Program-made: the position numbers and the translations under genes | DNA from: Eukaryota sp. GEM-RC1 | Taxonomy: Eukaryota | NCBI GenBank assembly: GCA_040285855.1 | Contig: JAUFOQ010000004.1 | Span: 372,001 to 436,000, forward strand | Direction of reading: 5' to 3' | DNA: 64,000 nucleotides | In this document: positions 15,001 through 49,402 of the stretch, piece after piece | Position numbering within the stretch: the first letter of the stretch is position 1 | Layout of the letters: the number at the start of each line of letters is the position of its first letter | Notes under the pieces: model-generated | The model's input: only the letters and a program-made list of their open reading frames with translations | What the model was told of the DNA's origin: nothing | The model's database searches: none

Positions 15001-17879
15001 AGTTTGGAAATAGTAGTAGTTAAGAGATTTGAATTCAACGTGATAGTGGAATCATAGAGAGTTAAGTTCCGCAAAACATATGGAGCTTCAACATTATCAA
15101 TGAGTGGGAACTTTTCAAACACAAAGCGGCCGAAAGATGAGGTAAAATTGTGCAATTCCAATCTATTAAGTCTTTCGACATGTAATAAAGCTGGATCTTG
15201 TTCAGTAGCATCTATAACAAAGTCATGCACAATGAACCCAGTATCTGCCACAATAATATTACCTCCAAACATCTGAACAAAAGGAAACTCTAAGAGAAAC
15301 AGAGCCCCTCTGTCGTAAACAGCTGATCGTTGGAAGTAAATATACCCAGAATGTACCGTAATAGTTTGAATGGGTCCCCAGACAAAACAGAAAGGAGTGA
15401 AGAAAAGTTTTCCAATAGAGTGGTTGATATCGACTGACAACTCATAATCACAGCGTAAGTGGATCTCACCAGAGGGATGAGTGAATCTATAACCTCCCGG
15501 TCCAACAACAGAACTAGAGCTAGACAGTGTAAGTTTGTTTGAATCAACTCTGACATAAGAGGTTTCACTGAGAGTCTCGATATCTAAGGTCAGGGTGTTG
15601 TTCATTCCCAAATGAAGAATAGAGTCAGTTCTAATGTAAATCTTGTGAGAATTGGTGATGAAAGTTCCTCTAGCTAACTCGAGTTTAGCGTGATTGATAT
15701 CAATAATACCATTGTTCTCAATCAAAGAAGGTTTAGAGGAGACATCAGAACAGTTACACCACATCTGCCATTCAACTTCTTTTGGCATAGAAGTACCATT
15801 ATCAGGAGCTAATACACGAGGATTGGAAGCAGAACTTGGAACATATGAACGACTAGGACAACCAGTACCATGGTGATGTCTGTGACAATGCCATGTATTT
15901 CCTCTCAAATACTTAAGACCATGGACAGGATCGTCAGAGTGAAACCACGGAACAGGAGTAGTAGTTCTTAGATCCATTGGCCAATCAGTGATTCTCCATC
16001 TAGTAGATAAAGGAACTAAGGCATCATAAATGGAATCGAACGCATCCCTGTATTTAATCAGACACTTATCCTCACAGAAAGGCCAACTATTGGTACCAGA
16101 GACTGTCGGGAGACATCCTTGGTGCCTCAACTGGTGGTTGGTAGTCAGATTCTTGTTCTCTAGACACACGTGATGAGAGGATCTAGAATAGACCCACTCA
16201 CTGGAAAAAGAATCAGCAGAGTACTTGCCACTGCCAGAAGAACAACCTTTACAACAAGGAGAGTTAGTGATATCATTGCACTTGGTACGATCCACCAAGA
16301 ACTGAACTATTGAAGGAGTAGAATCAGCTAAAACACAGCAAGAGGCTATTCCTGGACCAACGTGAAATAAAACATCAGCAGTAACGTTGATAATGGCACC
16401 GGGATGGTTAGTGAAGTGGAAATCCACATAAGAAAACAAGTCAGTGGTATCATTAAAATGGACAACATCGTGATTATCAATGGAAGAATCCTGTCCAAAT
16501 ATGAAATCACCTTGAATAGTGAGATGCCCTTCATTCACGAGAGAAGATTTCATAGTGAAAACCTTTTCAGGTCCTTTCTGAATATAACCTCCTTGCTGAA
16601 GTACAGTAGTACCAGAGAATCGACCTCCACTCCAACCAAATTCGTTCTCCACAACAAGGGTATCTCCACCCAGTCTATTGGAAGTACCATGCATAAGTAG
16701 AAAGTCAGTAATGACCTCAGCATTGGTTTCAAGGGTGACAGTACCATCAAACAGGTACATTTCCGCAAACCTAGCGGGTCTATCGGCATTCTTAAAATGA
16801 GCATTACCAGTTTGAACTGTGAGGTAGAACCGTTGTTGTGTGAATAAGCGAGCATTATCCTCAATTAAGAAGAGTCCTCCAGTAACTGTAACATGAAAAT
16901 GAGTTACTCTAATTTCAGATTGACCTTTAAAGACAATAGAGCCACCAGTGTTAACCGACCCAACGGTCATATCATACACGCGAGAGGATTCATCAAAGAT
17001 AGCTGCTCCTGTATTAACAAATACAGATCCAAATAGTCTAAAACTGTTAATGGATAGAACAACAGTACCAGATTCAAATAGTAAATCACCGGGACCTTCA
17101 ATAGCACAAGATCTGTGAATTCTGTAGTCAGAGTCGAGTACTAGCATGGAATCAGCATTATTCATTCGGAAATCACCGTAGGCTTCTCCATATCTAGTGA
17201 TTGTGAACTGGGTATAAGGAGCGTTGAAAAACATGGAGCCGTAATGTTCGAACTGGAGGTCCATGGAAATGTGAGAAGGAGCATCAAGATATATGTCACC
17301 CATGTTAGAGAATTCAGCATGGCGGTCTTCAGCAACGGAGGTAAACGTAACATCAGCGTAGAAGTGGGTAGAACAGAAGATATCAGTCTGGAAGATAGAG
17401 AGACGGTTGGTATCAATGAATTGAGGGTCCAAGAAGCGAAGAGTACCGAGAGTAAGAAAGGCGGTTCCCTCTCCAATAGTTTTGCGTTGGGAAGAGGTGA
17501 AGAGGAAGTCGAAAGAGGAAGTGATGGAGCCGTCGCCTGATATTGTGCCAGAGATCCAGGTAACGTTAGTAGCACGAAGAGCGCGCCCATTCGTAATACG
17601 GAGATCAGGTACGGTCTCAAAAGAATCGGAACCCAAGGTGAGACTGCCTATAGTACGATGGGCGGTGAGGATTACGGAATAATCCCCCTCTTTTGTGATG
17701 AAGGCGTGGTCATTGGACCCCGGGACTTGGTTAGGATTCCAATTAGAGGCATCGTGAAAAGAAGAAGAAAAGATCACCCGTCCAGTAAACGTCTGAGATA
17801 AGAAGGATCGATAATAGTAGATACCAAAAGCATATGACAAGAAGAACAACACACTCAACAACAAAAGAATTGTAGTCAT
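1..17879 (-). CDS. Giant secreted/surface beta-helix (autotransporter-passenger-like) repeat protein, >5900 aa, C-terminus beyond window edge; split by about 7 frameshifts
   Basis: ATG 17879 gives signal peptide MTTILLLLSVLFFLSYA, then SFHDASNWNPNQVPGSNDHAFI. ORFs 13335-17978, 12538-13431, 8576-12427, 5356-8655, 3528-5180, 2738-3583 and an open frame from about 2740 to 1 share recurring motifs (WxxGxxxG, GGxRxGxD, FINxG, G/S/T/V/I-rich strands). They join by single-base shifts at homopolymers near 13452, 12630, 8580, 5412, 5208, 3538 and 2766. Confidence 0.8.
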
Positions 17880-18136
17880 GTGGTGATATTGGAAACGAAA
17901 AAATGAGTTGTGTAACATAATGTGATCACAATGTTTCCCTCTGTCTATGTTGAGCTTTTTCTTTTTGTTACCGTCCATAACAGCTACATGTTCATGGTGT
18001 GACCATCAATGTATCCCTTGTCTTTGACCTCTATTTTGCATATGGTTCTTCTCATATATTTCATATAGATGTTGCACTTTTAGTTGGTTTTTTATCTTTA
18101 AAAATTCAATACATGTAGGATACCTGTAGGTGAAAC

Positions 18137-19350: not shown

Positions 19351-20742
19351 GTATTTACATGTACATTGTATTCTTGTTACTATTTTCTAGTGTTACGAGA
19401 AACGTTTCAACGTTTCAGCTTCTTTACATTACCAATTATTAAAAATAAATTTGAGTTGGTCAAAACATCATGAACTACAATTAAATGTACACTGTCCAGT
19501 CACGTTTCGGAGCCGCGGAAAGTTTCCACTGGAAACGTAGAGACGTTTCTGGAACGCTTCCTCAACGATTTTTTGAAAGTTTTTTCAGTTCAGATCCGTT
19601 TTACATAATGCAGTTCGTGACGTTCCGTATCGATATGAAATGTTTAAATGCAATGGTTTAAATCGAAAATATTTTCGAATACAACCTCTTCTTAAACATT
19701 ACAGTGATGAGATTATTACCAATTCCGACGAGGTGATCTCATTGTTCCATATCTTGATTCTTGTCAAGCAGTGATAGATTGGACAACTGTTGATCCTTGT
19801 GCAAAAGTGAATTAAAATTCTGTTCCGAGTGCAACCGTAATCAATTGCCAAAGCTGGAGGAAGAAAAATCGATAAGGACTTTGACACAATGAAGAACTGG
19901 AGATGACTTCCAATAGTATTCTTCCTCTAAATGCTCTGATTTTACCGTATCAATTCTTGGTAATATTGAAGGTGCTGCTGAAGATTTTTGATGCATTTTC
20001 AGAATTCTATCGTGATTGAAGGAATAACTGAAATCCAACGATTTGGCGCAATCGCATTGTGTTTTCATCGTATAGAAGTTTTCAAAGTATTTGAATAGTA
20101 TACAAATTGTATCGTGATTCAATAGTACAGTACTAGTAGGTGTAGATCATTTTATATTTTTTAAGTACTAATACTGTAGTTTGTATTTCGTTAATTTATG
20201 ACATATACTTTCACAATTGTAATAAAATAGTTTTAAAAACAATTCCTGTTATGATCTCGGAAGCTCTGGTAGCTCTATTTCTGTAAACAAAACGTTTCTG
20301 TGAGTTTCAATGACAATGAATATTTTTTTACAGTTTTGCTACAAAATTGTAGTTATTGTTCTTATTGTATTCTATGTTCTATAAAATTATCTCTAGAAAC
20401 ATAAGAATACGACACAGTTTTTCTTTGAACAAATTTTCGAAATGATGTCATGCGATTGAAGCATAAATTTGAATCTTTATTCTTTGGCACAACCGAATAG
20501 TTACTTAATTATATGTAAGCAGTGCTCTTATTATTTCTTAATTGGCAATTATGTAAACTTGGAAAATAGCTTCCATTCAATTATTGCAATTAATTGTTCA
20601 ATAGATTATCATTACTCGTTACCGAAATAACAAAAAAACCGTTCAAAGTTGATCTTTTAGAATTATCTCTAAATACAATCTAAAATATTTCTCACTGTTC
20701 GTCCGGACTTTCATCGACGACATTTGTAGAGCATTGTGTTCT

Positions 20743-20906
20743 AAAGTACTTAATGTCCCATAAAGACCTCTTGTATCTCAAAAAGAGCTATATGTTCATG
20801 TGTCGGTCAGTAAGAGAGTGTCTCTGTAATCCATAGAGAGATTTCACTACCGAAAATGGTGTTCAACTTCCACCCTAATGGCTGGTACAAAGGCTATCTT
20901 CACGTA
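20743..20906 (-). pseudogene. hAT transposase C-terminal dimerisation domain remnant (copy 2)
   Basis: Reverse complement of 45137-45300. Confidence 0.55.
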
Positions 20907-21672
20907 ATTGTTTCTCGCTTCTGTTATTCAGTTTGTGGATAATTGACAGCAACTTTGCTGACCAAAATTTGCTGAGCCATGGCTTGAAGAATACCCCAGT
21001 TATTGGCAAATAATTGGAGCTGAAAAACAGCTACCAGTCAATACTGCAATTAACTGATTGCCAATTATTGAATTTTCAGTCCAGTTTTGAAACACTTACA
21101 TAATACACAGTAAGTGTTTCAAAGTATTTGAATCGTTTACAAGTCAAAGTCCACTGTGGTTCAAGAGTAGATGTAGAACATCCAGTATATTTAAGTACTA
21201 ATTGTTTCATTCATTTAACTTAAGGATTGATATTTATCAAACCCATTAAAAACACATCAAGAGTTGTCAAACTCTGATGTAGTATCACTAGTAATTGTCG
21301 GCAAAACATGAGGCCGTAAACACGGCTATGTTAATGCGTGAAATACTAAATCGAGATGGAACTGTAAAGGTATCAACTTTCGATTTGATACCTTTACAGT
21401 TCCAAGAGGATAACTGTGAGGTTCTTTTGTGTACGGTTTCTGAAGATGGAGTGGTGGTTATGTTCGCCTCAAAAAAAATCTCCAACCGTTAGCACATTCT
21501 GACACACTCCGAGATATGTTGCGTTCAAGCCTGGATGGTAACAGTACATGCTGAGAGATTCCTGCTACCCACCACCTATATCCTCCCTTTTGATTCTTTT
21601 GAACACTTTCTTTTGATTTATGGACTTAACCAAATATGGCCGGGTTTCACCAGCCAGCTAACAAAAATAAAG

Positions 21673-22773
21673 CTAATTTCTACACAAATACTCTACTCTA
21701 TCATCACTACCATTCATCCAGTGTTCAAACATGTTCATCATGTTCAAACAAGCCATCTTGTTTCGATTCCAATACATTTGACTGGGCACTGTATGCCCTT
21801 TCTTTTTCCCCTTTCAATCGTTTCTTGACTTCTCCCAGACAATGTTTGCTCTTACACTCTAGTAAGCCATGGGGGTGAATCCATTCTCTCTTCTCTCTTG
21901 ATTTGGGCTTTGGGTTGACAACCTCAATAGAAGTTTCAAAAACATCTTCATTACATTCTGGACACTTGGACGAAGTGTTTCTCTCATCATTCATAACTGT
22001 TAAAAACCGTTTCTCTGAAAGAATGAAGTCCAAGTCTTAGTTCTCGATGGTGGACTGTGTTTTAAGTTGGTGATTGGCTTCTGACCTAAATCACCAATAC
22101 ATAGTACAATTTTGTCACGACTACCGAAAGTTTTTACAATGCTGTTAACCAATTTAGACTCTGTCTTTTGCTTGTGGACATGATTTTGGATTTTGTGAAT
22201 CCTCCATATATGCAAAGCATAGAAGTCTTTAGTTGCATTGTAGTGAATGCATTTAGCCAGAATAAACTTTCTAAATTTATTGTAATTAACAGTTTTAGAA
22301 TTCTGTTCTTCACTTAACCAAGTGTTCCATTTCTCAATTTTCATTGTCACAGTTATTGGAATATCATCACCTGCACTCACGGTAGTAGTACCTGATCTCC
22401 TTCTAACAAGGTACTGGTGGATTCTTTTATGCTTTCTTGAAACTCTAGACCACTCAGCATATGTCAATCGTAAGAAGTTGTATTTCTTTAGAGGATTTTG
22501 AGTTTCCCTATTTGATTTAGATGCAAGTTGTAGCATATCTCTCTTTCCAATGTCCACATAACCCATTTCTTTAGAAATAAAATCAGACCTATCACATTCA
22601 TTGAAATATTGTACTTTTACTGAAGCTTTACTTGAATCAGGTTTACATTTCATTCCTTTCAAATCCTTTCTCACAAATTGAAAACAAATGGATATTCCAT
22701 CAGTTACAGCATAATTGTTGAATTCAAAATTGGCTTTGTGAAAACTTCTGTCATCACAGTTAAACCATCTTTT
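21673..22773 (-). pseudogene. 5'-truncated Fanzor1 (C-terminal region with RuvC and zinc finger only)
   Basis: RWFN...TDGISICFQF, YVDIGKRDML, LCIGDLG, NDERNTSSKCPEC, HGLLECKSKHC and, in a shifted frame, YWNRNKMACLNM...RVEYLCRN*. Start codon and N-terminal two thirds are absent. Confidence 0.85.
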
Positions 22774-23026
22774 AATTCTTCATTGGGATTTGACAGTTTA
22801 CAAATATTTACATTGTGTACTGCAAAAGAACATTCTGAGGTCAGAATGTTGCATATAATACGTGGAAAAAACAAATTCGGTATTGTTTTCAGGGAGTGGC
22901 TATATTTTCCAAGTGTGTTGCATATTATTGAACACGCAACACGAAGAAAACACGTCATTTATGGGCATAAAGTGAATTTTCAAAATGATTTCAATTACAC
23001 TAACAGTCGTTTCTATCTCAGTGCTG

Positions 23027-28173: not shown

Positions 28174-28370
28174 AAAGAATTAAAAAGGAAGGATATAGGT
28201 GGTGGGTAGCAGGAATCTCTTAGCATGAACTGTTACCATCCAGGCTTGAACGCAACATATCTCGGAGTGTGTCAGAATGTGCTAAAGGTTGGAGATTTTC
28301 TGAGGCAAACATAACCACCACTCCAGCTTCAGAAACCGTACACAAAAGAACCTCACAGTTATCCTCTTGG
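28174..28370 (+). repeat. About 200-bp segment also present just downstream of both Fanzor copies (44447-44645; 21402-21599 inverted)
   Basis: Direct match ggatataggtggtgggtagcaggaatctct...cacagttatcctcttgg with scattered substitutions. Confidence 0.92.
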
Positions 28371-28430
28371 TGCAGTTGCTGAGCCATGTTGATCAGAGTA
28401 CTTCTTCGCTTACTTAAAGTTACTGTGATC
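28220..28430 (-). pseudogene. SRF/MCM1-type MADS-box domain fragment
   Basis: ITVTLSKRRSTLINMAQQLHQEDNCEVLLCTVSEAGVVVMFASENLQPLAHSDTLRDMLRSSLD aligns by eye with MCM1/SRF (VTFSKRKxGIxKKAxELSxLTGxxVLLLVVSETGxVYTF...P...LIQACL). The N-terminal MADS residues are not evident. Confidence 0.7.
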
Positions 28431-29179
28431 AGGGAACCATAAAATGAACACACCATATCGCTTCCGTTGATTCTCAATGTAACATAGATCTGAAGAGACT
28501 GTTGGTCGTGTAGACATACAGAGCTGTGGGGGTTCTTTCTGTTCAAATTCTGAACTTCCATCACGTCTATTAAGGCCCATTTTGAACGACTATCGATTTC
28601 CTCTTTTGGCAGGATCTTTCTCTTTTCGGGAATCATGACCTGCTTTAAATTCAATGTTTTAGCAAAATGCTTAAACAGAGAACTAACGGGGTCAAACGGT
28701 TCTTGACACCACTCCAGGACTTCTTGGACTCACTTGTTGCATCCTGAAGTCTGTTATTATGCCCATTCCATCTTCACTATATAAAGGTTGGTGTTTCTTA
28801 CGTGATCACTTTTTCCTCCTTTCGGACTGCGTATAATGGAACTTTTTTTTACAGGTAGTCTGCAGCTAAATGAGTCAAAATCAGAATTTGGCTTTGTACT
28901 CTCATGGTCAATCGTTGTTGAACCGTTCTCGAGATTCATTATTAGCAATTGTGAGCAGAAGAAGATAATTCAGTGTCCATTTTGTTAATACCATAATGTT
29001 CATCGTTAGCTGTAAAAATGAATGTTCACAAGACACCATTAATTGTCAAAAGATGAGTTAATATCTCATACAATTTGTGTGAAGAATATATGCTCTACGT
29101 TTACTAAGAAATTGATTCTGTCTTTCGTCACCACAATAATAACAAGTACTTAATTAATTATTCTGTTTAATTTGTATTT

Positions 29180-36619: not shown

Positions 36620-38110
36620 TTAACACTTCATTTTAGGAGTTCGGCCTCGAGGACAGAACAAGTTCATGAAAGGATAAGGTTTAATAGAGTTGAAATAAGG
36701 AAGCTTCTCAAAATCATATTCAAATCCTCCAAGTATTTGACATGCACCTCTACTTCCACATCCACACCACTCTGGCTTTCCCACCCACTCCTCTCTATAA
36801 ATCCCCAACTGACAGACATCTAAAGGGGTGAACTCACCAGGAACAAGACTAGAAGAGACTTCTTCATCAAACACACCTGCTTCTTGTAACACTTTGATGA
36901 CGTAACCGGAGCACATCAATTCTGGAAGACCTTCCTCATACGTCCAATCATTCTGTTCAGGGATCGACATCACGTCACCAAGATTGAGTGCTCTCCTAGA
37001 TCGAATTTCACGAAGAACTTGTCGCATTGAGTTCAGCTCCTCATTACCTAGTCTTTTAGCAATTCCTCTCACCGCAATCTCTCTTACAATACTAGGAGCA
37101 AACACATCTCCAATTTGAAGTAACATTTGCATGAAAGCCCAAGACCAAGTTCCAGGAAAGCTCTCATACGAGTCTATCCAACTGTACAAGAAATTACGAA
37201 GTCCATAATGAGTACCAAGATGACGTGAAACCCACGTGACAGCTCTTTCGTTATCAAACCTATCCCTAACCTCATCCTTTAATGGCAACAACACAGTCAT
37301 TCCTCTCTTAGTTCCATGTTCTACTCTCCACCATTCGTCAAAAGGAAGAGCCACGAAACCCCTTCTAACCTCAGTAACGTTATCATAACCCCAGAGCTCT
37401 TCTGAGAAGGGATCAGAGTCAGTTGATTCAGTGATGTAGAGCTCACCATTGATCTCTACAGCAATACACATGTGAGACACCATTCCACCAGTTCCATATG
37501 CGATAACAGAAGATCCAGCGGCGAGAGAATATTGCAGAAGAATATCTCCAGGTTTAATCAACTTTTTAACTTCATCTCCTCTGTTTGGAGGTGCAGGAGG
37601 TCTGGGTAAAAACTCAACATCAAAGTTCCTCTTCATAAACTCTTGGTTGTGTTCAACTGTATTGGACCCCCAGAAGAGATTCAGCGTGTTTATTAGCTCA
37701 GGCATCCACTGCTTAAATGATTGGTGAATGTAGAAGAGAAGAAGCTCATTGCGAACAACTAGATCATATCTAGATGGAGATAGAATAAGATTCCAAGTGT
37801 TGACACCAGAGGATCGAATGATACGAAAGCGAAGAGCACGGGGGAAAATGAGAGCATATGATTCAGAACAAGAGTCTTTTGATATAGAGACTGAGTGAAC
37901 TTTGATTTGAACTCGCTTAATCCAACTGAGGTTGTCATAGAGACGTAGAGAGGCAGAGTGGTGATAGCAAGGAGTTGACCATGTGTAAGGACCCGATGAG
38001 GAAGGTTTGAATTCAGCAACTAGGGGAGGTGATAAGTCCATGTAAGTGACGGGTTCATATGAGATGACGACAACAATTAACAAGAAGAAGAATAAAACAG
38101 GTAATTGCAT
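36620..38110 (-). CDS. Secreted permuted papain-like (NlpC/P60, YiiX/YaeF-like) amidase
   Basis: Signal peptide; IKPGDILL, SHMCIAV..ELYITES (His first), LMCSGYV (Cys later), FTPLDV. Confidence 0.7.
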   Translation of the reverse strand: MQLPVLFFFLLIVVVISYEPVTYMDLSPPLVAEFKPSSSGPYTWSTPCYHHSASLRLYDNLSWIKRVQIKVHSVSISKDSCSESYALIFPRALRFRIIRSSGVNTWNLILSPSRYDLVVRNELLLFYIHQSFKQWMPELINTLNLFWGSNTVEHNQEFMKRNFDVEFLPRPPAPPNRGDEVKKLIKPGDILLQYSLAAGSSVIAYGTGGMVSHMCIAVEINGELYITESTDSDPFSEELWGYDNVTEVRRGFVALPFDEWWRVEHGTKRGMTVLLPLKDEVRDRFDNERAVTWVSRHLGTHYGLRNFLYSWIDSYESFPGTWSWAFMQMLLQIGDVFAPSIVREIAVRGIAKRLGNEELNSMRQVLREIRSRRALNLGDVMSIPEQNDWTYEEGLPELMCSGYVIKVLQEAGVFDEEVSSSLVPGEFTPLDVCQLGIYREEWVGKPEWCGCGSRGACQILGGFEYDFEKLPYFNSIKPYPFMNLFCPRGRTPKMKC

Positions 38111-38290
38111 GACAAATGGGGTACGTAATACAGATCAGAAGATCGATTCTGATATCATGTTGTAGCAAGGTTTTCTTTGGAAGTAGGTTTCTTGTAAGTA
38201 CAACACTAGGTTTCATAAATTAGATAGCGAATTAATACACTAAAAATAAGGAAGGTATGTGAAGGAAGATGCACAATACTGTAGAAACAC

Positions 38291-38745
38291 CTAACGAGCA
38301 CGACTATCTATTGAGATGGTAACAGGACCATCGTTAACGATCGTTACTTCCATCATTGCTTGAAAGACTCCTGTTTTAACCTCTCCCGAATGTTGATCTT
38401 TTACTTTCGACGTCAGATATTCGAACAAAGTCGTTGCACCATCGGGACTCATTGCCAAATGAAAGTCTGGTTTGGTTCCCTTTTGCAGATAGAATATAAA
38501 GTGAATTGACTGACTAGCAAGACACCATATCCGAGATCGTTCACACTCTTTTTCCAGTGAAGTCCTTCTTCATTGGAAAACAGACGAAGACTCACAATTT
38601 TTCGGGCAATATAGTCCGCATCCTCCATTGTATCATCTCTATGAATTCCAACTAGAACATTCAGTCCATGAGCGATCTCGCCGGAAACAGTTCCATCTTC
38701 AAGAGTGACTCGGGATTCCTTAACTCTTTGTATGATAGCCTTCAT
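38291..38745 (-). CDS. DTD1: D-aminoacyl-tRNA deacylase (one frameshift near 38482)
   Basis: MKAIIQRV, LVSQFTL, shifted KGTKPDFHLAM, GVFQAMMEVTIVNDGPVT. Confidence 0.93.
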
Positions 38746-38865
38746 CTGAATTTCCATCTTTCAACTGCTTAATTTCCAATCTTGCAAACAACTCGAACAA
38801 ATGATTGATGCCTATATTGGAAACAAAATGAACATAGGATATATGTTAAACATTCGCAAGTCTCA

Positions 38866-38944
38866 ATGTCTTATAAACTGTTCGTTGGACAAATTCCCAA
38901 AACATTCACAGAACAAGATTTAGAGAGTTTATTTAACAAATATG
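38866..38944 (+). other. Orphan exon encoding the first half of a CELF/Bruno-like RRM, ending at a 5' splice donor
   Basis: MSYKLFVGQIPKTFTEQDLESLFNKY(G) followed by G|GTAAGT; the unspliced frame stops at TAA 38950-38952. Confidence 0.65.
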
Positions 38945-38995
38945 GTAAGTAAGCAAATCAGAAAATTGAACCAGAACAAAATCCAAACACTTGCA

Positions 38996-39637
38996 ATGGC
39001 CCAACCTCCACCAGGCTTCGTAAATCCATATGGTCATAACTCTTATGCCACAAACCCTCATGCTTTTCAACCGCCAGCAGCATTTCCGACTCAACAGGTT
39101 GCTTACCAGCAAGTATCTCCTCATAATCATCTCTATATTGAAATGCTTAAACAGCGTTTTGACCAGATTGACACTGATAGAAGTGGATCAATTGGTTCAG
39201 CTGAATTAGTAGCAGCCTTCTCTACCAGGGAGAAAGTGTTCAGTACTCGTATCGCCAGACTTCTAATTCGAAGTTTCTCTACCAAAGGGGAAGTCTGCTT
39301 TGCTGAATTCGAACGTCTTGATGCTTTTGTTCATCGTATCCGCTCCGCCTTTGTCAAAGCTGATGTCAGCCGTACTGGTCATATATCCAAGGCTGAAATG
39401 AGGCTTGCTCTTCATGATTTAGGTTTTGGTCACCTTTCTAATATTACTTGTGCTAATTTGATTCGAGTTTTCGATGTAAGTAGAAGTGATAATATCAGTT
39501 ATGAATGCTTCGTTGAATTGTCTGCCTTATTGAATCTGTTGACAACTTTGTATTCTAGGTATGACAAGAATCCTGGTTCTGGAACAATTGAACTTACTTT
39601 TGAGCAGCTTATTTCATTTGCTTTGTTCATTCAGTGA
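38996..39637 (+). CDS. Penta-EF-hand protein (peflin/ALG-2/sorcin-like)
   Basis: P/G/Y/Q-rich N-terminus, FDQIDTDRSGSIGSAEL, ADVSRTGHISKAEM, GTIELTFEQLI. Confidence 0.9.
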   Translation: MAQPPPGFVNPYGHNSYATNPHAFQPPAAFPTQQVAYQQVSPHNHLYIEMLKQRFDQIDTDRSGSIGSAELVAAFSTREKVFSTRIARLLIRSFSTKGEVCFAEFERLDAFVHRIRSAFVKADVSRTGHISKAEMRLALHDLGFGHLSNITCANLIRVFDVSRSDNISYECFVELSALLNLLTTLYSRYDKNPGSGTIELTFEQLISFALFIQ

Positions 39638-39890
39638 TGTTATGGGGTGCACATTTTAGTGTTTTTTGTAGATGTTTGTTCAATATTTCTCAATTTCTTT
39701 TTAATTGTATATTTCCAACCCTTTAAACCTTTAAATGAAACTGACCATTTTTGCCATTATGATAAGCTACATCCACTTTCAATGTATCACAGCTGAGGAT
39801 AAAGCTGGTCACAAATAGTGCTGGGGTATTCACATACACCTATGAGTTATCAATTGCAAACGTGCTTTCAAACATCATTTGTCTGCTTAA

Positions 39891-40568
39891 ATGACTTTTG
39901 ATATTGACTGGACTCGGTTGAGTTCCAACTTACGTTCTTGTTTTGATCAAATGATGAACAATGAAGTGTCTGAGATTCTGCTAGATGGCAACTCCATTGG
40001 TCCTCAAGGTGCTATAGCAATTGCGAAGGCATTGAGCGTTAATACGTCGGTTTCTTTGATCCAACTGGAACTCAACTCTATCGCAAGCAGAGGTGTTATA
40101 GCAATTGCAGATGCTCTCAAGGATAATTCTTCTCTGTCTAAGATCTATTTGGGCGCCAACTCACTCGGAGATGAAGGAGCGATAGCAATTGCTGCTGCTT
40201 TAAAGGTTAATACATCAATTTCTGAAGTCGATCTCAGTGGCAACTACATCGGTCCTAAAGGAGCTAAAGCCATTGCAGACGCTTTGAAGGTGAATACGTG
40301 TGTTTCTGTGGTCGATCTTTGTTACAATTCTATTGGTCCTAAAGGAGCTAAAGCCATTGCAGACGCTTTGAAAGTGAATACGTGTGTCTCGAAGCTCCTT
40401 TTAAGGGACAATTCTATTGGTCCAAAAGGTTCGGTAGCGATAGCAGACGCTTTAAAGCTTAGACCTTCAGTGACTCAGATCGATTTAGGCGGTAATTCCA
40501 TTGGTCCTAAAGGTGCTAGAGCAATTGCAGAAGCTGCGGAGGTTAACTCAATGATATCGTTGATCTAA
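39891..40568 (+). CDS. RNI-like leucine-rich repeat protein (28-aa repeats)
   Basis: About 7 repeats of LxxNSIGPKGAKAIADALKVNTxVSxIx. Confidence 0.9.
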   Translation: MTFDIDWTRLSSNLRSCFDQMMNNEVSEILLDGNSIGPQGAIAIAKALSVNTSVSLIQLELNSIASRGVIAIADALKDNSSLSKIYLGANSLGDEGAIAIAAALKVNTSISEVDLSGNYIGPKGAKAIADALKVNTCVSVVDLCYNSIGPKGAKAIADALKVNTCVSKLLLRDNSIGPKGSVAIADALKLRPSVTQIDLGGNSIGPKGARAIAEAAEVNSMISLI

Positions 40569-41275
40569 TGCCCCAACATACACTTTGTACAATCCAACTG
40601 TATTTAGGTTCTGGGAGGTGGAGAATTTCTTTCTACATCTAGATGTATCGAAAATATAATGATATCACTGCTTTTAACAAGTGTATGTGATCACAGTATC
40701 CGTTATTGTTCATTATGGACAGCGACAAGTGTTAATTGTAGGAATTGGGCCAATTAGAATTTTCTATCACATTCGATATTTCTTTCTGCATGTACAAATG
40801 TAATCCAGTGTTTTTTTGAATAGAATACAGAACTTTAAGCAAGTACTCTATTGAATACCGGTACGTCTAATTTCGAACTGACGTGTTTTTCTTCGCGTTG
40901 AGTGTTCAATACGATGCAGCATACTTGGAAAATACAGCCACTCCCCTGACAAAAATACATAATTTGTATTTTCCACGTATGATATGCAACATTCTGACCT
41001 CCGATTCTTTCTTTTGCAGTACACAATTTAAATATTTGTAAACTGTCAAATCCCAACGAAGAATTACCTCAATAGCTCTGTTATGTATCAACGTATTAAC
41101 TCAATACATCACATTTACGTTGGCGATACTACTGTTGTTACTTAATGAACAACTGTAATGTTTAATATTCATTTGTGTGCAGACCAAATGACTGTGGGAA
41201 ACAATTGTGCTGCAGTAACTTGGACTCATTAAGATATATAAAACAAATACCATATGACCATATTTTTTTGTTACG

Positions 41276-44200
41276 ATGTCTTGGCGAGATCATTACAAAG
41301 AAAACCAAGATTGGGAATATACTGAAAGAAGATTAATTAGAGTTCATGCAATCTACACTGATCAACAAATCATCATGATCTCTGTCATTATTGCAAAATT
41401 GCAATCCAATGGTGAATTACAATTTGACAACTCAATCGTCCTTTACACTGACTACAACTATAAAATCAAATTCAGTGAATCAGAAACACCAGCTTTTAAA
41501 TTAGATTTTTTGGACTTCCCAAATGAAAACGAATTATTGGTTACGACGCTAATATTGTTAATCAATATAAACCAAAAGCTTTTATTGGACATAATATTTT
41601 CAATTTTGATTTGCCCATAATTGACAATAGAATGTGGGCTCTTGACCTTCCTCTTTTAACAAATCCAAATCCAATTGAGTTACCTTTACATAGTAGATGG
41701 CTGGATATCATAAAAGATCACAATGGTTTTACAGTTTTGGATACCTTCTTGTTTGCAAAAAAGCATATTGGTCTCAAGTATGGTTGTAGTCTAGCCAATT
41801 TATTTTGGAATTTACTTTCTGAACCCAAATTGAAATTGGATAAAGACTTGGATCACTTACTCCCAGTTGATTGTTTAAGAAATGATAAAAGAATGAAAAT
41901 TTTAATCAACTACTGCCTTCATGATTCAATGTTGGCGATTAAATTGTTTATTTTACTTCAGAAAGACAAAATTGTTTTTCAATCATGGGCTTCTATTAAA
42001 ACTTCAGTTGTTAACTACTGCCTTCATGATTCAATGTTGGCGTTGAAATTGTTTACTTCATTTCAGAAAGACAAATCTGTTTTTCAATCATGGGCTTCTA
42101 TTAAAACTTCAGTTGTTTGTGTGGTAAAACATCAAGAAGTTCAAGATGCAATGCTTTTAGGATCTCAGTTCTACAATGCGTTAAGACAACAGACTACAAT
42201 GTGTGTTAAAGAATATCTGTTGGCTGGCTATCGTCTTGGACAAGATTTGTCTAAGTTTGATTACAAGTTGTTTTATCATACAATGCTTTCAATTAGAAAT
42301 CTTTCATCTGAAGTTCATGGATTCAAAATTTACAACAATTATCCTATATCAACAATTGATACAGATCTTCGTGATTTTGTTGCTGGAGAAGGAATCTATA
42401 CTGCCAATTCAAACTATCCTGGATATAAGCACTGTGTTACTGATAAATTTGGCCAATGTCATATACCAGAACTTGATTTTGATCATATCAGTAGAGCTTT
42501 TGAATACACTACTCAGTATGAAATGTGGCCTGCGTTTGAACTAAATATTCGTCGCAATTATGAGTTATACATTAAAAGATTAATCAATACAGTAATGGGT
42601 AAGAAACAGTTTGAAAAGGGAATGAAGAAGAAACGTAATTTAGTTTTAGGTCCAGAACTTGCAGGACTAACAGGTCGTGAAGCTCAAAAGTTCACTAGTT
42701 ACTTCAGATTTCGCTTAAAGATATTGAAAGACCAGATTTTGTATCGACCTAGACATGAAGCCTTACAGTATATTAATTCTTTTAACTCTGCCACTCACCC
42801 AGAAAATGTTAAATTTATTGATGAAGTTTCCAAAGTTTTTGATGATGATTTCAGTATGTTAATATTTGAACAGGTTAATTCTCTAATGGCTGATAAAATT
42901 CCAGAATTACTTCAAAGATTTAACATCATATTTCCTGCTACAATCACTACTAACGACAATGAAACTGTAGACGTTCATGATTTACTTTACACAATTCAGG
43001 AGTATCCACTTCATTTTCTAAGAAATTCTCTGCAAATCTCAGATTACTTGGAATCAAAGGGTGCTAAGTTGTATAATGTAATTCCTCTAAGTTTAGAGAA
43101 TACTCATTGTTTTTTCCCAATAGACACTAGAACTCTTTGGGGACTGGCTAAGCACTGTTTTGGATATAAGAATAATGATAAGAAGATTGGTCCTTTACAT
43201 TCAAAAGTGACTAATTACATGTCTGCTTATCAGATTAAAAACTTGACCCATTCTCAACAACAGGATTACTGGAAAAGATGGTTTAACTATGATAACAGAA
43301 GTGTTGACAAAGCCAATTTTGAATTCAACAACTATGCTGTAACTGATGGAATTTCGATTTGTTTTCAATTTGTGAGAAAGGATTTGAAAGGAATGAAATG
43401 TAAACCTGATTCAAGTAAAGCTTCAGTAAAAGTGCAGTATTTCAATGAATGTGATAGGTCTGATTTTATTTCTAAACAAATGGTTTATGTGGACATTGGA
43501 AAAGAGATATGCTACAACTTGCATCTAAATCAAATAGGGAAACTCAAAATCCTCTAAAGAAATACAATTTCTCACGATTGACATATGCTGAGTGGTCTAG
43601 AGTTTCAAGAAAGCATAAAAGAATCCACCAGTACCTTGTTAGAAGGAGATCAGGTACTACTACCGTGAGAGCAGGTGATGATATTCCAATAACTGTGACA
43701 ATGAAAATTGAGAAATGGAACACTTGGTTAAGTGAAGAACAGAATTCTAAAACTGTTAATTACAGTAAATTTAGAAAGTTTATTCTGGCTGAATGCATTC
43801 ACTACAATGCAACTAAAGACTTCTATGCTTTGCATATATGGAGGATTCACAAAATCCAAAATCATGTCCATAAGCAAAAGACAGAGTCTAAATTGGTTAA
43901 CAGCATTGTAAAAACTTTCGGTAGTCGTGACGAAATTGTACTATGTATTGGTGATTTAGGTCAGAAGCCAATCACCAACTTAAAACACAGTCGACCATCG
44001 AGAACTAAGACTTGGACTTCATTCTTTCAGAGAAACGGTTTTTTAACAGTTATGAATGATGAGAGAAACACTTCGTCCAAGTGTCCAGAATGTAATGAAG
44101 ATGTTTTTGAAACTTCTATTGAGGTTGCCAACCCAAAGCCCAAATCAAGAGAGAAGAGAGAATGGATTCACCCCCATGGCTTACTAGAGTGTAAGAGCAA

Positions 44201-44373
44201 ACATTGTCTGGGAGAAGTCAAGAAACGATTGAAAGGGGAAAAAGAAAGGGCATACAGTGCCCAGTCAAATGTATTGGAATCGAAACAAGATGGCTTGTTT
44301 GAACATGATGAACATGTTTGAACACTGGATGAATGGTAGTGATGATAGAGTAGAGTATTTGTGTAGAAATTAG
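41276..44373 (+). CDS. Fanzor1 (TnpB-like RNA-guided nuclease) fused to an N-terminal PolB-type 3'-5' exonuclease domain, about 1030 aa reconstructed across three frameshifts (near 41542, 43502, 44238)
   Basis: Exonuclease: DQQIIMIS, FPNENELL, PKAFIGHNIFNFDLPIIDNR, LDTFLFAKK..LKYGCSL, NYCLHDSMLAIKLF. Fanzor: SIKTSV, FFPIDTRTL, TDGISICFQF, RuvC-I VDIG (D 43492), IGD, RuvC-II NDERNTS (E 44061), CxxC...HGLLECxxxxC, RuvC-III WNRN (44275-44286), terminal RVEYLCRN*. Confidence 0.85.
41908..42117 (+). repeat. In-frame 105-bp tandem duplication (35 aa x2) at the exonuclease/Fanzor junction
   Basis: 41908-42012 and 42013-42117 encode NYCLHDSMLAIKLFILLQKDKIVFQSWASIKTSVV and NYCLHDSMLALKLFTSFQKDKSVFQSWASIKTSVV. 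Confidence 0.95.
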
Positions 44374-44465
44374 CTTTATTTTTGTTAGCTGGCTGGTGAA
44401 ACCCGGCCATATTTGGTTAAGTCCATAAATCAAAAGAAAGTGTTCAAAAGAATCAAAAGGGAGGA
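44374..44465 (+). ncRNA. Candidate Fanzor omegaRNA (scaffold plus guide); boundaries uncertain
   Basis: Lies immediately 3' of the Fanzor stop. GC-rich hairpin tggctgg-tgaaac-ccggcca at 44390-44409 in AT-rich context; same sequence in copy 2 (21637-21656). Confidence 0.45.
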
Positions 44466-44642
44466 TATAGGTGGTGGGTAGCAGGAATCTCTCAGCATGT
44501 ACTGTTACCATCCAGGCTTGAACGCAACATATCTCGGAGTGTGTCAGAATGTGCTAACGGTTGGAGATTTTTTTTTGAGGCGAACATAACCACCACTCCA
44601 TCTTCAGAAACCGTACACAAAAGAACCTCACAGTTATCCTCT

Positions 44643-44690
44643 TGGAACTGTAAAGGTATCAAATCGAAAGTTGATACCTTTACAGTTCCA
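44643..44690. repeat. Perfect 20-bp inverted repeat with 8-nt loop (also 21357-21404)
   Basis: tggaactgtaaaggtatcaa-atcgaaag-ttgatacctttacagttcca. Confidence 0.95.
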
Positions 44691-45136
44691 TCTCGATTTA
44701 GTATTTCACGCATTAACATAGCCGTGTTTACGCATGTTTTGCCGACAATTACTAGTGATACTACATCAGAGTTTGACAACTCTTGATGTGTTTTTAATGG
44801 GTTTGATAAATATCAATCCTTAAGTTAAATGAATGAAACAATTAGTACTTAAATATACTGGATGTTCTACATCTACTCTTGAACCACAGTGGACTTTGAC
44901 TTGTAAACGATTCAAATACTTTGAAACACTTACTGTGTATTATGTAAGTGTTTCAAAACTGGACTGAAAATTCAATAATTGGCAATCAGTTAATTGCAGT
45001 ATTGACTGGTAGCTGTTTTTCAGCTCCAATTATTTGCCAATAACTGGGGTATTCTTCAAGCCATGGCTCAGCAAATTTTGGTCAGCAAAGTTGCTGTCAA
45101 TTATCCACAAACTGAATAACAGAAGCGAGAAACAAT

Positions 45137-45300
45137 TACGTGAAGATAGCCTTTGTACCAGCCATTAGGGTGGAAGTTGAACACCATTTTCGGTAGTGAA
45201 ATCTCTCTATGGATTACAGAGACACTCTCTTACTGACCGACACATGAACATATAGCTCTTTTTGAGATACAAGAGGTCTTTATGGGACATTAAGTACTTT
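45137..45300 (+). pseudogene. hAT transposase C-terminal dimerisation domain remnant
   Basis: YVKIAFVPAIRVEVEHHF, then after a shift VVKSLYGLQRHSLTDRHMNI*LFLRYKRSLWD, resembling IPxTSxxVERxFS...RxxL...LFLRxNxxLW. Confidence 0.6.
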
Positions 45301-46391
45301 AGAACACAATGCTCTACAAATGTCGTCGATGAAAGTCCGGACGAACAGTGAGAAATATTTTAGATTGTATTTAGAGATAATTCTAAAAGATCAACTTTGA
45401 ACGGTTTTTTTGTTATTTCGGTAACGAGTAATGATAATCTATTGAACAATTAATTGCAATAATTGAATGGAAGCTATTTTCCAAGTTTACATAATTGCCA
45501 ATTAAGAAATAATAAGAGCACTGCTTACATATAATTAAGTAACTATTCGGTTGTGCCAAAGAATAAAGATTCAAATTTATGCTTCAATCGCATGACATCA
45601 TTTCGAAAATTTGTTCAAAGAAAAACTGTGTCGTATTCTTATGTTTCTAGAGATAATTTTATAGAACATAGAATACAATAAGAACAATAACTACAATTTT
45701 GTAGCAAAACTGTAAAAAAATATTCATTGTCATTGAAACTCACAGAAACGTTTTGTTTACAGAAATAGAGCTACCAGAGCTTCCGAGATCATAACAGGAA
45801 TTGTTTTTAAAACTATTTTATTACAATTGTGAAAGTATATGTCATAAATTAACGAAATACAAACTACAGTATTAGTACTTAAAAAATATAAAATGATCTA
45901 CACCTACTAGTACTGTACTATTGAATCACGATACAATTTGTATACTATTCAAATACTTTGAAAACTTCTATACGATGAAAACACAATGCGATTGCGCCAA
46001 ATCGTTGGATTTCAGTTATTCCTTCAATCACGATAGAATTCTGAAAATGCATCAAAAATCTTCAGCAGCACCTTCAATATTACCAAGAATTGATACGGTA
46101 AAATCAGAGCATTTAGAGGAAGAATACTATTGGAAGTCATCTCCAGTTCTTCATTGTGTCAAAGTCCTTATCGATTTTTCTTCCTCCAGCTTTGGCAATT
46201 GATTACGGTTGCACTCGGAACAGAATTTTAATTCACTTTTGCACAAGGATCAACAGTTGTCCAATCTATCACTGCTTGACAAGAATCAAGATATGGAACA
46301 ATGAGATCACCTCGTCGGAATTGGTAATAATCTCATCACTGTAATGTTTAAGAAGAGGTTGTATTCCAGGTGACCACCCGGGTGGAAAATT

Positions 46392-46402
46392 TTCGAACAC
46401 TG
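46392..46402. repeat. Solo right TIR of the MITE family at 57410-57895
   Basis: gtggaaaattttcgaacactg versus gtgggaaatttcgaacactg at 57876-57895. Confidence 0.6.
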
Positions 46403-46735
46403 GTTGAAATAATATGTTGACCTTTTTTTGTTTCATTTGTTCATCATCTATTCTGAATTTGACTCTGTGAAATGCAATCAGTTCATAAACAAACGATCTC
46501 CCAAACCAAAAAAGTACGACTATCTCTATCTAATAGTCTGATATTACATCAAATCTGTGCTAAAAAAGCACTTGCAATGTGTGTTTGAAAAGTACACTAA
46601 AATACAGTCTGTATTTTAAAACTCACTTTTGAAAAATACATAAAATACAAAATACAGAAAATACAGAAATCTGTATTTTACAAGTATGTATCTAGGTTTT
46701 GGCTTGCTTTGCCTTCTGAGCCAACAGTTACTTAT

Positions 46736-47524
46736 ATGATTGACTCAAGACTCCTCTGTCTTTCCTCCACCATTCCTGATGCCTATCTTGTGACAGAGAA
46801 CTCTTCCAACATTCCGAAGTTGGCAAAATGTCTGATTCGAATGCAAACCTCATCGCCATCTATTTCAACCAATGGATTTCGATTGAAGTACGAACTCCAA
46901 CTCATTGATCGTATCATCTACAAAGCCAGGAATGCTCATCGCACGTGGACTTGCTTTCAAAAACTTCAAAGAATCCGTCAACTATCTCGCAAAATCTCTA
47001 TCCTAGATCCCATTGCTCTACGTGACTCTCTCCAAGCTCATCTCCAACTTCCTTCAACCAACGTTCCCCTTACTTCATTTCCACTACCTACAACTGATGC
47101 ACTGTATTTCACTCTATTCAAACTTTACCACCTTACTTATCTTCTCTCTGAACTTCGTTTGGCCTGCTTACTCTGTTCAGAAGCATTAACCCGCCAACTT
47201 CAAGTCAAACACATGGTTCATTTCCTGCTAGTAGTTCTATCTAGTATTAGCTCAGTGAGAAGTACCATTGATCCTGTTATTGAAAGTTTAGATGAAGTAT
47301 ATTCAAAAGTTCTTGCTTTTAAAAAGGTGTTGGCTTCTCCTACTACTAGTCAGTTTTCTTCTTATGTAATTAGAACTCTTTCCAGTCAACCTCCGTCGAA
47401 TCTTTATAAGCATTTGTTGGAGTTTGATAATTCACGGAATTTGTTTGCTGGTTTTTGTGATTTCATTAGTAAAAGGAACAAGTTGTCTTTACAGTCGGGT
47501 GATTATGGAGAGATTGTGGATTAG
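46736..47524 (+). CDS. Rmp1/Nepro-like (DUF4477) RNase MRP subunit candidate
   Basis: ELQLIDRIIYKARNAHRTWTCFQKLQRI and HMVHFLLVVLSSISSVR resemble DUF4477 motifs. Confidence 0.6.
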   Translation: MIDSRLLCLSSTIPDAYLVTENSSNIPKLAKCLIRMQTSSPSISTNGFRLKYELQLIDRIIYKARNAHRTWTCFQKLQRIRQLSRKISILDPIALRDSLQAHLQLPSTNVPLTSFPLPTTDALYFTLFKLYHLTYLLSELRLACLLCSEALTRQLQVKHMVHFLLVVLSSISSVRSTIDPVIESLDEVYSKVLAFKKVLASPTTSQFSSYVIRTLSSQPPSNLYKHLLEFDNSRNLFAGFCDFISKRNKLSLQSGDYGEIVD

Positions 47525-48193
47525 GGCTCAATCATTTATGATGGTCATTTTCTGAATTTGTCGTTTTTTCAAATATTGTACAATTTTATTGAAACATTTG
47601 ATCATTCCACAATTGTTGCAGTTTCCTCAAAGACTTTTCAAATATCCAAGAATTTCTACTCATCATTTCCTTGGAACAATCACAACTTTGACTCTGCTGA
47701 TCTTTTTGGCATTAATATGATTCTAATATTTTCTAATGTTACTTTTTTTTATAAGATATATAGACTCTTGCAGATAACGTCAGTTGACTCAACATGTGAC
47801 TTAACTGCCAACAGACTGCCTTGTTTGTAACAAATCTGTTTCATAAATTTTCAGTGGCTTTGAATGTAACATGAACTAATTATACGTAAGTATGGTGAAT
47901 GATTCGAACTAAAATTTGATATCACTATAACAACTCCCATCACTATCAAGTCTTACAACAGCTTTATCCTCATAAAAGGAACTGACAGCGAGTACAGCTT
48001 TGGAGATGATTAGGGGAATTGTTTTAAAAACAGTTAATATTGCAATAATGCAATTATTAACCGGTGTTACAATAAATATTGATCGAAATACATATTGGAG
48101 CACTCTTGATTGCAATATTGGAAAAGCATGCATTTTCTTGTGTGTGCATGCGGTCTAGGTTGTTTTTAATTTTCTTTCCCACTATTGTGCAAA

Positions 48194-49402
48194 ATGACTG
48201 GATTCAGAGACCTCAACTCTCCCAGAGCTGTGGAAGAAATCAAATGTCTACATCTCCTATTTCCCAATCATCCTCTGCATGAGATCACGGCGGAGTATCA
48301 AGCATCTGATTCCTTCGCTGAAGCCCACAACACTCTTTTAGAAGACTGTCCCACCACATGTGACATCTGTAGTGTTTATATTAAAGAAGGAACTGATCAC
48401 TCATGTGGACCAGAAACAGTGGATAGCGATAAGGTTCAAGCTTATATGCAGGGCAGGGAGCCTCCGATTCCTTCAGCGGAACCCGAGCCATCCTCTACTT
48501 TGGACACTTCTCTGAGTTCAACTAAAACCTCAGAATCTCTTCCTGAAAAAACGAATCAACTGGACGTAAACATCCATGTATCACCTTCATCTGTCGTTCA
48601 ACCAAATCCATTCATCAGTGTCACTCAATCCTTTAATGATGACTCGCAACCACCCCCACAATCTCATACAATTGACTCTACAGGCATACCTTACTCTCTT
48701 GATTCAGAAGAAGAAGATGAACAGGACTCACAACAATCCACTGACTCTGATTCCTCCTCTTCTGAACAACCAAACGAACCACATAACTCCCCACTTACTG
48801 CCAACGTTGTCAGGATACCTGAATCGTATGAATCTTCGAATGATCATGAGAATAACAAAAACACTGATCACGTCATCATACAGAAACCCCCCGTCAATGA
48901 GGAAGAGTTTAGCAAAGAACTAATCTCTTTTGGAGAACAGAATCAGTCAAGACTATTGTTACTTCATGAATTTTTGAATGAACTTCTGCATACTCTATAT
49001 CACTTAATCTCGACTCAATGTCAGTCTTCTAACTACATTTCTATAGATTCCACAGAGTTTTCCCTTCGGAAGTTCTGTAGTTTACCAAACACAACACCAG
49101 AATCAGTATATCTAGTTGACCTCTACTCTCTCATGGTTGTTCGTAACATACTACTGAGCTATTGTGAAAGGTTTTCCTTCCAGGAGAATCTAGGTCAAAA
49201 TGTGTACAGATCTTTACTTGCATTCACACACTTTCTTAGCCGGAGGATACACGCAGAGGTTCAGGTTGGAGACTTGCTTTCAGTGGAAGCTGGAATTTAC
49301 CTGCTTACCGGTACAAGTACCTCTGCTCATATTCTTCAAGCCATGGGCCATCAAGTAATACCGGAAACGTCATCAGATGATGTTATCTTTTTGAAGGAAT
49401 AA
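48194..49402 (+). CDS. Hypothetical protein with N-terminal Cys/His motif and S/D/E/P-rich disordered middle
   Basis: Open frame of about 400 aa; CPTTCDIC...HSC; no family recognised. Confidence 0.6.
   Translation: MTGFRDLNSPRAVEEIKCLHLLFPNHPLHEITAEYQASDSFAEAHNTLLEDCPTTCDICSVYIKEGTDHSCGPETVDSDKVQAYMQGREPPIPSAEPEPSSTLDTSLSSTKTSESLPEKTNQLDVNIHVSPSSVVQPNPFISVTQSFNDDSQPPPQSHTIDSTGIPYSLDSEEEDEQDSQQSTDSDSSSSEQPNEPHNSPLTANVVRIPESYESSNDHENNKNTDHVIIQKPPVNEEEFSKELISFGEQNQSRLLLLHEFLNELLHTLYHLISTQCQSSNYISIDSTEFSLRKFCSLPNTTPESVYLVDLYSLMVVRNILLSYCERFSFQENLGQNVYRSLLAFTHFLSRRIHAEVQVGDLLSVEAGIYLLTGTSTSAHILQAMGHQVIPETSSDDVIFLKE

Follow-up and report, generated by a model that had tools for sequence, protein, structure and literature searches.

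A family-B polymerase-type exonuclease joined to Fanzor1: an apparently undescribed Fanzor1 variant seen through a broken copy

The function of Fanzor proteins in eukaryotes is described as an open question (PMC10432273), and the closest described systems to the locus reported here are SpuFz1 of Spizellomyces punctatus (PDB 8GKH and 9CEU-9CEZ), PpFz1 of Parasitella parasitica (9CF0) and the more distant GtFz1 of Guillardia theta (9CER). SpuFz1 is reported to cut the non-target strand after base 16-17, and its residues H21, T22 and K25 to contact the start of the heteroduplex (PMC10432273). We analysed a 64,000-nt stretch of Eukaryota sp. GEM-RC1 (contig JAUFOQ010000004.1, positions 372,001 to 436,000; hereafter the window), in which an earlier note had proposed a Fanzor1 fused to a proofreading exonuclease of the family-B DNA polymerase (PolB) type at 41276-44373 (copy A). 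Intact relatives in single open reading frames (ORFs), conserved catalytic residues and a structure model bear this proposal out, and we are almost certain of the architecture, a DEDDy PolB-type exonuclease joined directly to a complete Fanzor1 in one chain. The fusion is real and an apparently undescribed variant of Fanzor1, seen in the window through a broken copy. No natural exonuclease-Fanzor or 2A-Fanzor appeared among the matches listed in full-text literature searches, whose scope leaves out Repbase and subscription journals, and the word exonuclease is absent from the main texts of PMC10432273, PMC10530073, PMC10711439, PMC3627910, PMC10691335 and PMC13565253, as from supplements where these were searchable.

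Compared with SpuFz1 and PpFz1, the family carries an additional N-terminal DEDDy exonuclease of about 250 amino acids, an Asn at RuvC-III and an upstream 2A-like motif, while the whole WED-REC-RuvC-zinc-finger body aligns with theirs (Z 25-27). A profile built from 21 members matched PolB exonucleases at about positions 110-286 (Pol delta, E 2e-11) and both SpuFz1 (E 3e-50) and PpFz1 (E 3e-52) from about 300 to 1007; the same profile matched GtFz1 at E 1.5e-19, a protein that is more distant in sequence and in which no exonuclease domain aligned. An AlphaFold model of the relative P0104 (71-sequence alignment, mean predicted local distance difference test score of 78.6) found SpuFz1 at E 8e-30 and Pol delta at 5e-7 with Foldseek. 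In VIA-align, residues 383-1096 of the model superimposed on SpuFz1 18-631 (Z 26.7, root-mean-square deviation 3.7, 573 aligned), and residues 130-377 on PolB exonuclease domains with Z of up to 18.6 (range 17-18.6, root-mean-square deviation 2.6, 182 aligned), which leaves the two matches about five residues apart. The best viral folds for the model were giant-virus Fanzor-like proteins. The exonuclease part also fell among PolB-exonuclease clusters of the ESM Atlas at 0.91-0.93; full-length P0116 gave no usable match there.

With the PolB proofreading exonucleases (Pol delta, Pol epsilon, E. coli Pol II, HSV UL30, T4/RB69 gp43) the family shares the fold and the motifs Exo I DxE, Exo II NxxxFD and Exo III YxxxD; unlike them it has no polymerase domain, and the P0104 model shows a helical insert after Exo I. 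The polymerase domain PF00136 had no match in the family proteins scanned and was present in the controls P0075, P0082 and P0091. We scored 12 sites in 75 proteins of named source, counting at each site only the rows that have a residue there. The Exo I Asp and Glu were kept in 20 of 24 aligned rows, the other four being fragments or a chimera without the region; P0028 and P0038 show DIE by eye but were misaligned in the scoring, as was P0122. The Exo II Asp was found in 23/24 rows, the Exo III Tyr in 30/32 and the Exo III Asp in all 32. About ten families keep the DxE and the Exo II and Exo III Asp, with pairwise exonuclease identities among ten representatives of 16-48%, mostly 25-48%, and the WED Lys/Arg follows the Exo III Asp at a fixed distance of 25 residues in 11/11. 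All 12 sites, with every exonuclease and RuvC site among them, stand in one ORF in five of the 75 proteins (P0018, P0103, P0104, P0116 and P0141), and in such intact members the exonuclease and the Fanzor1 body both appear catalytically complete.

These counts bear on the suggestion that the fusion merely records the capture of part of a PolB gene, which is unlikely because families that have diverged deeply still share the catalytic acids, and the polymerase domain has not been kept. More broadly, it is highly improbable that a Fanzor once inserted into a PolB gene and left the fusion as a relic, or that gene prediction or assembly produced it as an artefact: the junction lies inside one open frame of the window DNA itself, families from three genomes keep both the catalytic acids and the length of the junction, and no polymerase domain remains. 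In favour of such a relic or artefact are the relatives' assemblies, made from Nanopore reads polished with short reads according to PMC11316075, chimeric gene models such as P0142 with a reverse transcriptase and P0026 with DM10, and P0025, which has no exonuclease region.

The motifs of copy A lie where the earlier note had put them, and tblastn of relatives' proteins against the window resolved the copy into four frame pieces on the plus strand (41357-41542, 41548-43503, 43500-44243 and 44233-44370). An ATG at 41276 opens a stretch (41276-41356, plus strand) that is non-homologous to the family N-termini, holds neither the 2A-like motif nor the Exo I DxE, and is in frame with exonuclease piece 1 (41357-41542, plus strand). 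Piece 1 is 97% identical to P0007 aa 146-207, carries DQQIIMIS (41360-41383) and FPNENELL (41516-41539) in one frame, and ends at frameshift 1. Piece 2 (41548-41990, plus strand) holds Exo II (HNIFNFD, 41590-41610) and Exo III (YCLHD, 41911-41925) and runs unbroken into the Fanzor1 WED-REC-WED region and RuvC-I Asp (41992-43503, plus strand), a single open frame from 41548 to 43503 passing through SIKTS, TDG (43342-43350) and VDIG (43489-43500) before it ends at frameshift 2. The next segment (43500-44243, plus strand) carries the RuvC domain with its relocated Glu (DERNTS, 44058-44075) and the C4 zinc finger and ends at frameshift 3, and the last (44233-44373, plus strand) holds RuvC-III (WNRN, 44275-44286), with an Asn at the position of SpuFz1 D606, the C-terminus and the stop codon at 44371-44373.

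The reading in the earlier note of one open frame from Exo II into the Fanzor1 body thus stands, as does its placing of the body's start at SIKTS, which aligns with the SpuFz1 WED strand around K25. The expected domain matches were also found at both ends: the N-terminal window ORF matched DNA_pol_B_exo (PF03104) at E 1e-4, below the curated cut-off, against 9e-12 for P0001 and 4e-14 for P0007, both close relatives, and the 3' ORF matched PpFz1 at E 1e-14 and SpuFz1 at E 5e-14, so that the motifs are no chance resemblance. P0001 additionally carries the precomputed Pfam accession PF26935. Of the PolB exonuclease motifs that the note had listed in order, Exo II and Exo III held up; DxxIIMIS did not, as it is not the catalytic Exo I, and the true DxE lies about 50 residues further upstream in relatives and is absent from the window. 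P0007 aa 1-145 had no tblastn match there, and a permissive search of 40861-41360 for the Exo I region gave a best E of only 0.15. The family's 2A-like motif was likewise not found in the window.

Where a single frameshift had been claimed we found three. Frameshift 1, near 41543-41547, lies outside a homopolymer, and frameshift 2, near 43500, is not in copy B, the second copy described below. Copy B has an identical frameshift 3, near 44235-44243, and a tail shifted in this way also occurs in 4 of 15 aligned cluster proteins (P0006, P0008, P0010 and P0013); because it is common to all of these, it may be inherited or a systematic error. Copy A also has a 105-nt in-frame tandem duplication (41908-42117; two units 93% identical, with 7 differences) that repeats the Exo III helix and SIKTS with the first WED strand and is not present in aligned relatives. 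Since the Exo I region is absent, copy A is predicted to be exonuclease-dead, and with three frameshifts, the duplication, and Exo I and the N-terminal 145 residues of P0007 unmatched, it is on sequence grounds most likely a pseudogene, a decayed member of the family. The coding part common to copies A and B differs by 13 non-synonymous and 7 synonymous changes.

On the nuclease side of the family, the RuvC-I Asp (VDIG in copy A) was found in 37/40 aligned rows and the relocated RuvC-II Glu, which is shared with SpuFz1 and PpFz1 along with the TDG motif, in 28/31; in copy A the Glu stands in DERNTS at 44058, just ahead of a C4 zinc finger with CPEC at 44082 and CKSKHC at 44190. The Asp of TDG was kept in 30 of 38 rows and was Asn in the other 8. 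RuvC-III has an Asn in 22 of the 26 rows, with a single Asp and with Gln in three frameshifted tails, and the literal RD of Bao and Jurka's motif is not present. A D-E-N triad of this kind is shared with GtFz1, which is reported to cleave DNA with Asn at RuvC-III, and SpuFz1 D606N is reported as more active than the parent enzyme (PMC11423790). We had considered WNRN as the mark of a dead RuvC and rejected this in view of the active Asn triad of GtFz1 in the same source (PMC11423790). As the RuvC-I Asp and the Glu are kept and Asn is active in GtFz1, the clade is predicted to be active. Its Fanzor1 is predicted to cut DNA under RNA guidance and in dependence on a target-adjacent motif (TAM), and we consider it probable that the enzymes of the family are active. 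In the family, natural selection has thus settled on the type of Asn triad with which SpuFz1 became more active in vitro (PMC11423790).

A first search for related proteins brought up a single cluster at 89% identity; its 18 members, 15 of them listed, all bear the label Eukaryota sp. GEM-RC1. Phmmer against 1.84 billion representatives returned 86 matches. Labels were looked up for 19 of these matches and one further protein; all were GEM-RC1, TZLM3-RCL or TZLM1-RC except P0039, an unnamed protein without the exonuclease. A profile search of proteins of 880-2510 aa added three more with the same labels (clusters of 30, 19 and 1), and the architecture that the earlier note had wanted sought in related protists is found under three NCBI labels. 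These labels we take, going by the names, to belong to Skoliomonas. It is a multi-copy gene family of anaerobic protists in which most gene models are partial. PMC11316075 describes Skoliomonas genomes (sp. GEMRC, sp. RCL and S. litria) and these metamonads as free-living. In a quick tree of Fanzor cores (16 short rows dropped, rooted at the midpoint only), 15 fusion-family rows fell on one side of a long branch (SH-aLRT 100) from 44 other matches, several of the 15 being C-terminal fragments, and P0026 entering without a looked-up source. Run over the 68 proteins outside the named-source set, an exonuclease profile matched no Fanzor among the 44; its only hits were three polymerases and P0077, an unnamed fragment. 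A scan of metagenome contigs that finds close relatives only returned none for P0116 or P0104, and viral contigs yielded two loci, both ordinary phage-type PolB genes, and none for P0011. In P0142, the reverse transcriptase is of the non-LTR (long terminal repeat) type and is joined to part of the exonuclease; this is a single case and probably a nested insertion.

Upstream of the exonuclease, 16 of the 75 named-source proteins, from all three labels, carry a motif GD[V/I]xxNPGP, and NPGP was found in none of the 68 others. It resembles class A 2A/StopGo peptides, which are described as having a GD[V/I]ExNPGP-type motif (PMC12338488) and occur near the N-terminus of non-LTR retrotransposons among others (PMC12338488; bioRxiv 10.64898/2026.06.17.732966). 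The family differs in that the motif precedes an exonuclease-Fanzor and in that some variants are without the canonical Glu (GDVHKNPGP, GDIHPNPGP). After the 2A-like motif, P0122, P0126 and P0128 have a sub-threshold Peptidase_C48 match (E 0.002-0.006), in which Ulp1-like His, Asp, Gln and Cys motifs are visible by eye, and P0119 has a similar Cys motif ahead of the 2A-like motif. A 2A-like ribosome skip is predicted to free the exonuclease-Fanzor from an upstream peptide or protease, and the 2A-like and Ulp1-like modules together suggest a polyprotein strategy, which was not found for Fanzors in the literature searched. A DEAH-type helicase precedes the exonuclease-Fanzor in the P0103 gene model, and P0127, from another family, has a weak helicase match (E 0.009-0.06) upstream of its 2A motif; the element may thus encode a helicase of its own, or the gene models may be chimeric.

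As to what the exonuclease does, the nearest parallel is homing of the T4 td intron, where an offset endonuclease cut by I-TevI is followed by 3'-5' processing that aids homing. DexA and the gp43 proofreading domain are reported to aid this process, with one-sided events that show microhomology (PMC12153337, PMC2988022), and OMEGA systems have been reviewed as homing endonucleases (PMC13565253). The T4 system differs in its separate phage exonucleases and protein targeting, whereas here one RNA-guided chain would hold both activities. In the family, Fanzor1 would cut its target under omegaRNA guidance, leaving a TAM-side 3' end that still carries about 16 nt of flanking sequence. In the allele with the element this flank would be located past the element, so that such an end could not prime synthesis into it. 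The exonuclease, which ends a few residues before the WED strand at the start of the R-loop, would then remove the displaced single-stranded 3' tail, and the trimmed 3' end would serve as primer when host recombination copies the element in at the cut. Repair that overshot or was ectopic would leave captured host DNA and neither terminal inverted repeats (TIRs) nor target-site duplications (TSDs). We give this role, 3'-tail trimming for homing-type copying, tentative preference, at somewhat below an even chance. In a clade with a complete 3'-5' exonuclease rigidly fused to Fanzor1, the homing model is testable, as one point mutant parts cutting from end processing. As to the idea of end resection in the earlier note, an exonuclease of 3'-5' polarity is expected to shorten 3' ends and not to carry out 5'-3' resection.

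The same polarity suits a different outcome, in which the exonuclease would make cuts mutagenic or destructive by chewing 3' ends and deleting the target, thus ending futile re-cutting or destroying rival mobile DNA or viruses. Trimming from 3' to 5' takes away ligatable ends, and engineered TREX2-Cas9 fusions reportedly work by this mechanism; the conservation of the catalytic sites fits equally well. We consider it rather unlikely, as a selfish element gains less by destroying an empty site than by copying into it, and a multi-copy family with mostly partial gene models is not the pattern of a domesticated defence gene. TREX2-Cas9 has been used for such an effect (PMC13370227), and the family is in this sense a natural counterpart of engineered exonuclease-nuclease editors. 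DEDD folds include RNases, and the domain might instead act on RNA and trim the omegaRNA 3' end to guide length. Fanzor guides are reported to be trimmed to about 15-20 nt by an unstated route (PMC11423790), but the top sequence, fold and language-model matches are all to DNA-polymerase exonucleases, and the guide 3' end would be found at the heteroduplex end opposite the WED tether, which makes RNA trimming very unlikely.

A bolder form of the homing proposal is a eukaryotic mobile element without a transposase that spreads by RNA-guided homing alone, encoding a 2A-processed protease-exonuclease-Fanzor1 polyprotein and turning captured host pieces into new guides, which we find more doubtful than the trimming role itself. 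At the DNA level two copies, A and B, both in the window, could be read. In copy B (19677-22960, minus strand) a 190-nt left end abuts the final third of the Fanzor ORF, followed by the same 3' region; it is without A 41067-43272, and hence has no exonuclease. The left-end segment of copy A (40879-41066, plus strand), which starts with TGACGTG and contains an imperfect 17-bp hairpin (40920-40981), is 88% identical to copy B, while the right part (A 43273-46366) is 95-100% identical (99%; the last 1634 nt 100%), a pattern such as gene conversion would give. Downstream of the ORF, 73 bases after the stop codon, both copies hold a 200-nt piece of the 3' part of a MADS-box-like ORF (44447-44645 in copy A, minus strand, where it runs antisense to the Fanzor ORF and contains an A-run that shifts the frame). 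It is 94% identical to 28174-28370 (minus strand), 16 kb away, its host source, which overlaps a MADS-box-like ORF at 28223-28729 (minus strand; SRF-TF E 6e-5, below the curated cut-off). A perfect 20-bp inverted repeat or hairpin (44643-44690) starts where the MADS homology ends, and a non-coding 3' region common to copy B follows (44646-46366, of which 44733-46366 is 100% identical); four ORFs of 75-121 aa in or overlapping it had no Pfam match. Spu-1 has 30-nt TIRs, and none were seen here: at the A/B boundaries, 40879 and 46366, we found neither TIR nor TSD, and the right end may instead lie near 44446. A right end near 46690, suggested by an 18-nt inverted match, was rejected as not above shuffles (score 32; mean 24.4, maximum 43).

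A start with T, hairpins, captured host DNA and no TSD are also what a cargo-bearing DNA transposon, for example a Helitron-like one, would show. Its transposase would act in trans or be encoded ahead of the 2A motif, and the exonuclease-Fanzor would serve only to restore excised donors. Fanzor1 proteins are known from Helitron2 (Bao and Jurka, PMC3627910), and the helicase upstream in P0103, with its weak echo in P0127, could be read in the same way. We nevertheless think it unlikely. No transposase or RepHel domain scored above cut-off in the window ORFs or the family proteins scanned, and copies A and B show uncompensated differences in the 5' hairpin. The asymmetrical terminal inverted repeats of Helitron2 are placed at 0-2 bp from the 5' end and 20-30 bp from the 3' end (PMC3627910); the only candidate, a 12-nt inverted match (40923/45475), is not at these positions, its two arms being 44 nt and about 880 nt away from the ends that A and B define.

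Several points weigh against the proposed homing-type role. With only two DNA copies, which share their 3' flank, the element ends, TAM and guide are candidates only, and the identity gradient between A and B could reflect segmental duplication or an assembly effect. A transposase may be encoded at another genomic locus or ahead of the 2A motif, and homing at allelic sites does not by itself explain dispersal to many loci; reliance on end joining is also said to make homing less adaptive in eukaryotes (PMC13565253). The AlphaFold model is of the protein without RNA or DNA and gives no view of the reach of the exonuclease to the displaced strand. Against selection on the exonuclease stand P0025, without the exonuclease region, and P0031, which is altered at the Exo II Asn and the Exo III Tyr.

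The sequence around the stop codon contains a candidate omegaRNA scaffold (44318-44447, plus strand), with a 7-bp GC-rich stem-loop (44390-44409) and a closing stem (44318-44327/44438-44447). The GtFz1 omegaRNA overlaps the last 17 codons of its gene and its element apparently lacks inverted repeats, both candidate features here, and stem-loop 1 of Fz1 omegaRNAs is given as seven pairs (PMC11423790), which the candidate first stem-loop would match, as in SpuFz1 and PpFz1. The interval 44318-44447, whose ends were picked after inspection, folds better than 199 of 200 shuffles (z -3.06), compared with z +1.08 for 44374-44645. The 7-bp stem is the sole plus-strand stem of its kind with at least 5 G-C pairs, by criteria set after viewing. 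The closing stem has 10 bp; among resamples, 1.6% gave a complement of at least 8 bases, as did 7 of 147 control positions, including this site itself. Copies A and B are identical across the candidate scaffold, so neither covariation nor a variable guide is visible. If the scaffold ends at 44446, the first bases of the captured MADS piece would be the candidate guide. A stand-alone omegaRNA at 44447-44645 and 28174-28370 was considered and rejected, since the fold scored z +0.49, three sequences showed no covariation and a host ORF overlaps. Rfam gave one chance-level match in 38000-48000, and guides placed 3' of 44645 or 28370 had no target in the window besides the hairpin itself.

Some further features of the locus were recorded. 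A 13-nt match (28377-28389 and 45061-45073) joins sequence past the captured MADS piece to the element 3' region, and the 45061-45073 region also resembles 49330-49354 (22/25); these may be chance or a trace of microhomology. At 44901-44957 and 45938-45967, within the common 3' region, there are a 14-bp hairpin and a 26-31-nt direct repeat with a spacing of 1037 nt. An 86-codon open frame (46269-46529, minus strand; no Pfam match) crosses the A/B right boundary at 46366, and the flank of A may thus be native and have been copied by B. The left-end heptamer TGACGTG occurs 17 times on both strands over the whole window and may be a host promoter motif rather than an element end. Just upstream of copy A lies a leucine-rich-repeat ORF with 84-nt repeats (39891-40568, plus strand). 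Elsewhere, 1-18005 (minus strand) contains a run of very long ORFs, the longest of 1556 codons, which resemble frame-disrupted parts of at least one large surface protein with repeats, and direct repeat pairs of about 50 nt occur at 57425-57473/57828-57876 (403 nt apart) and 49984-50033/50449-50498 (465 nt apart).

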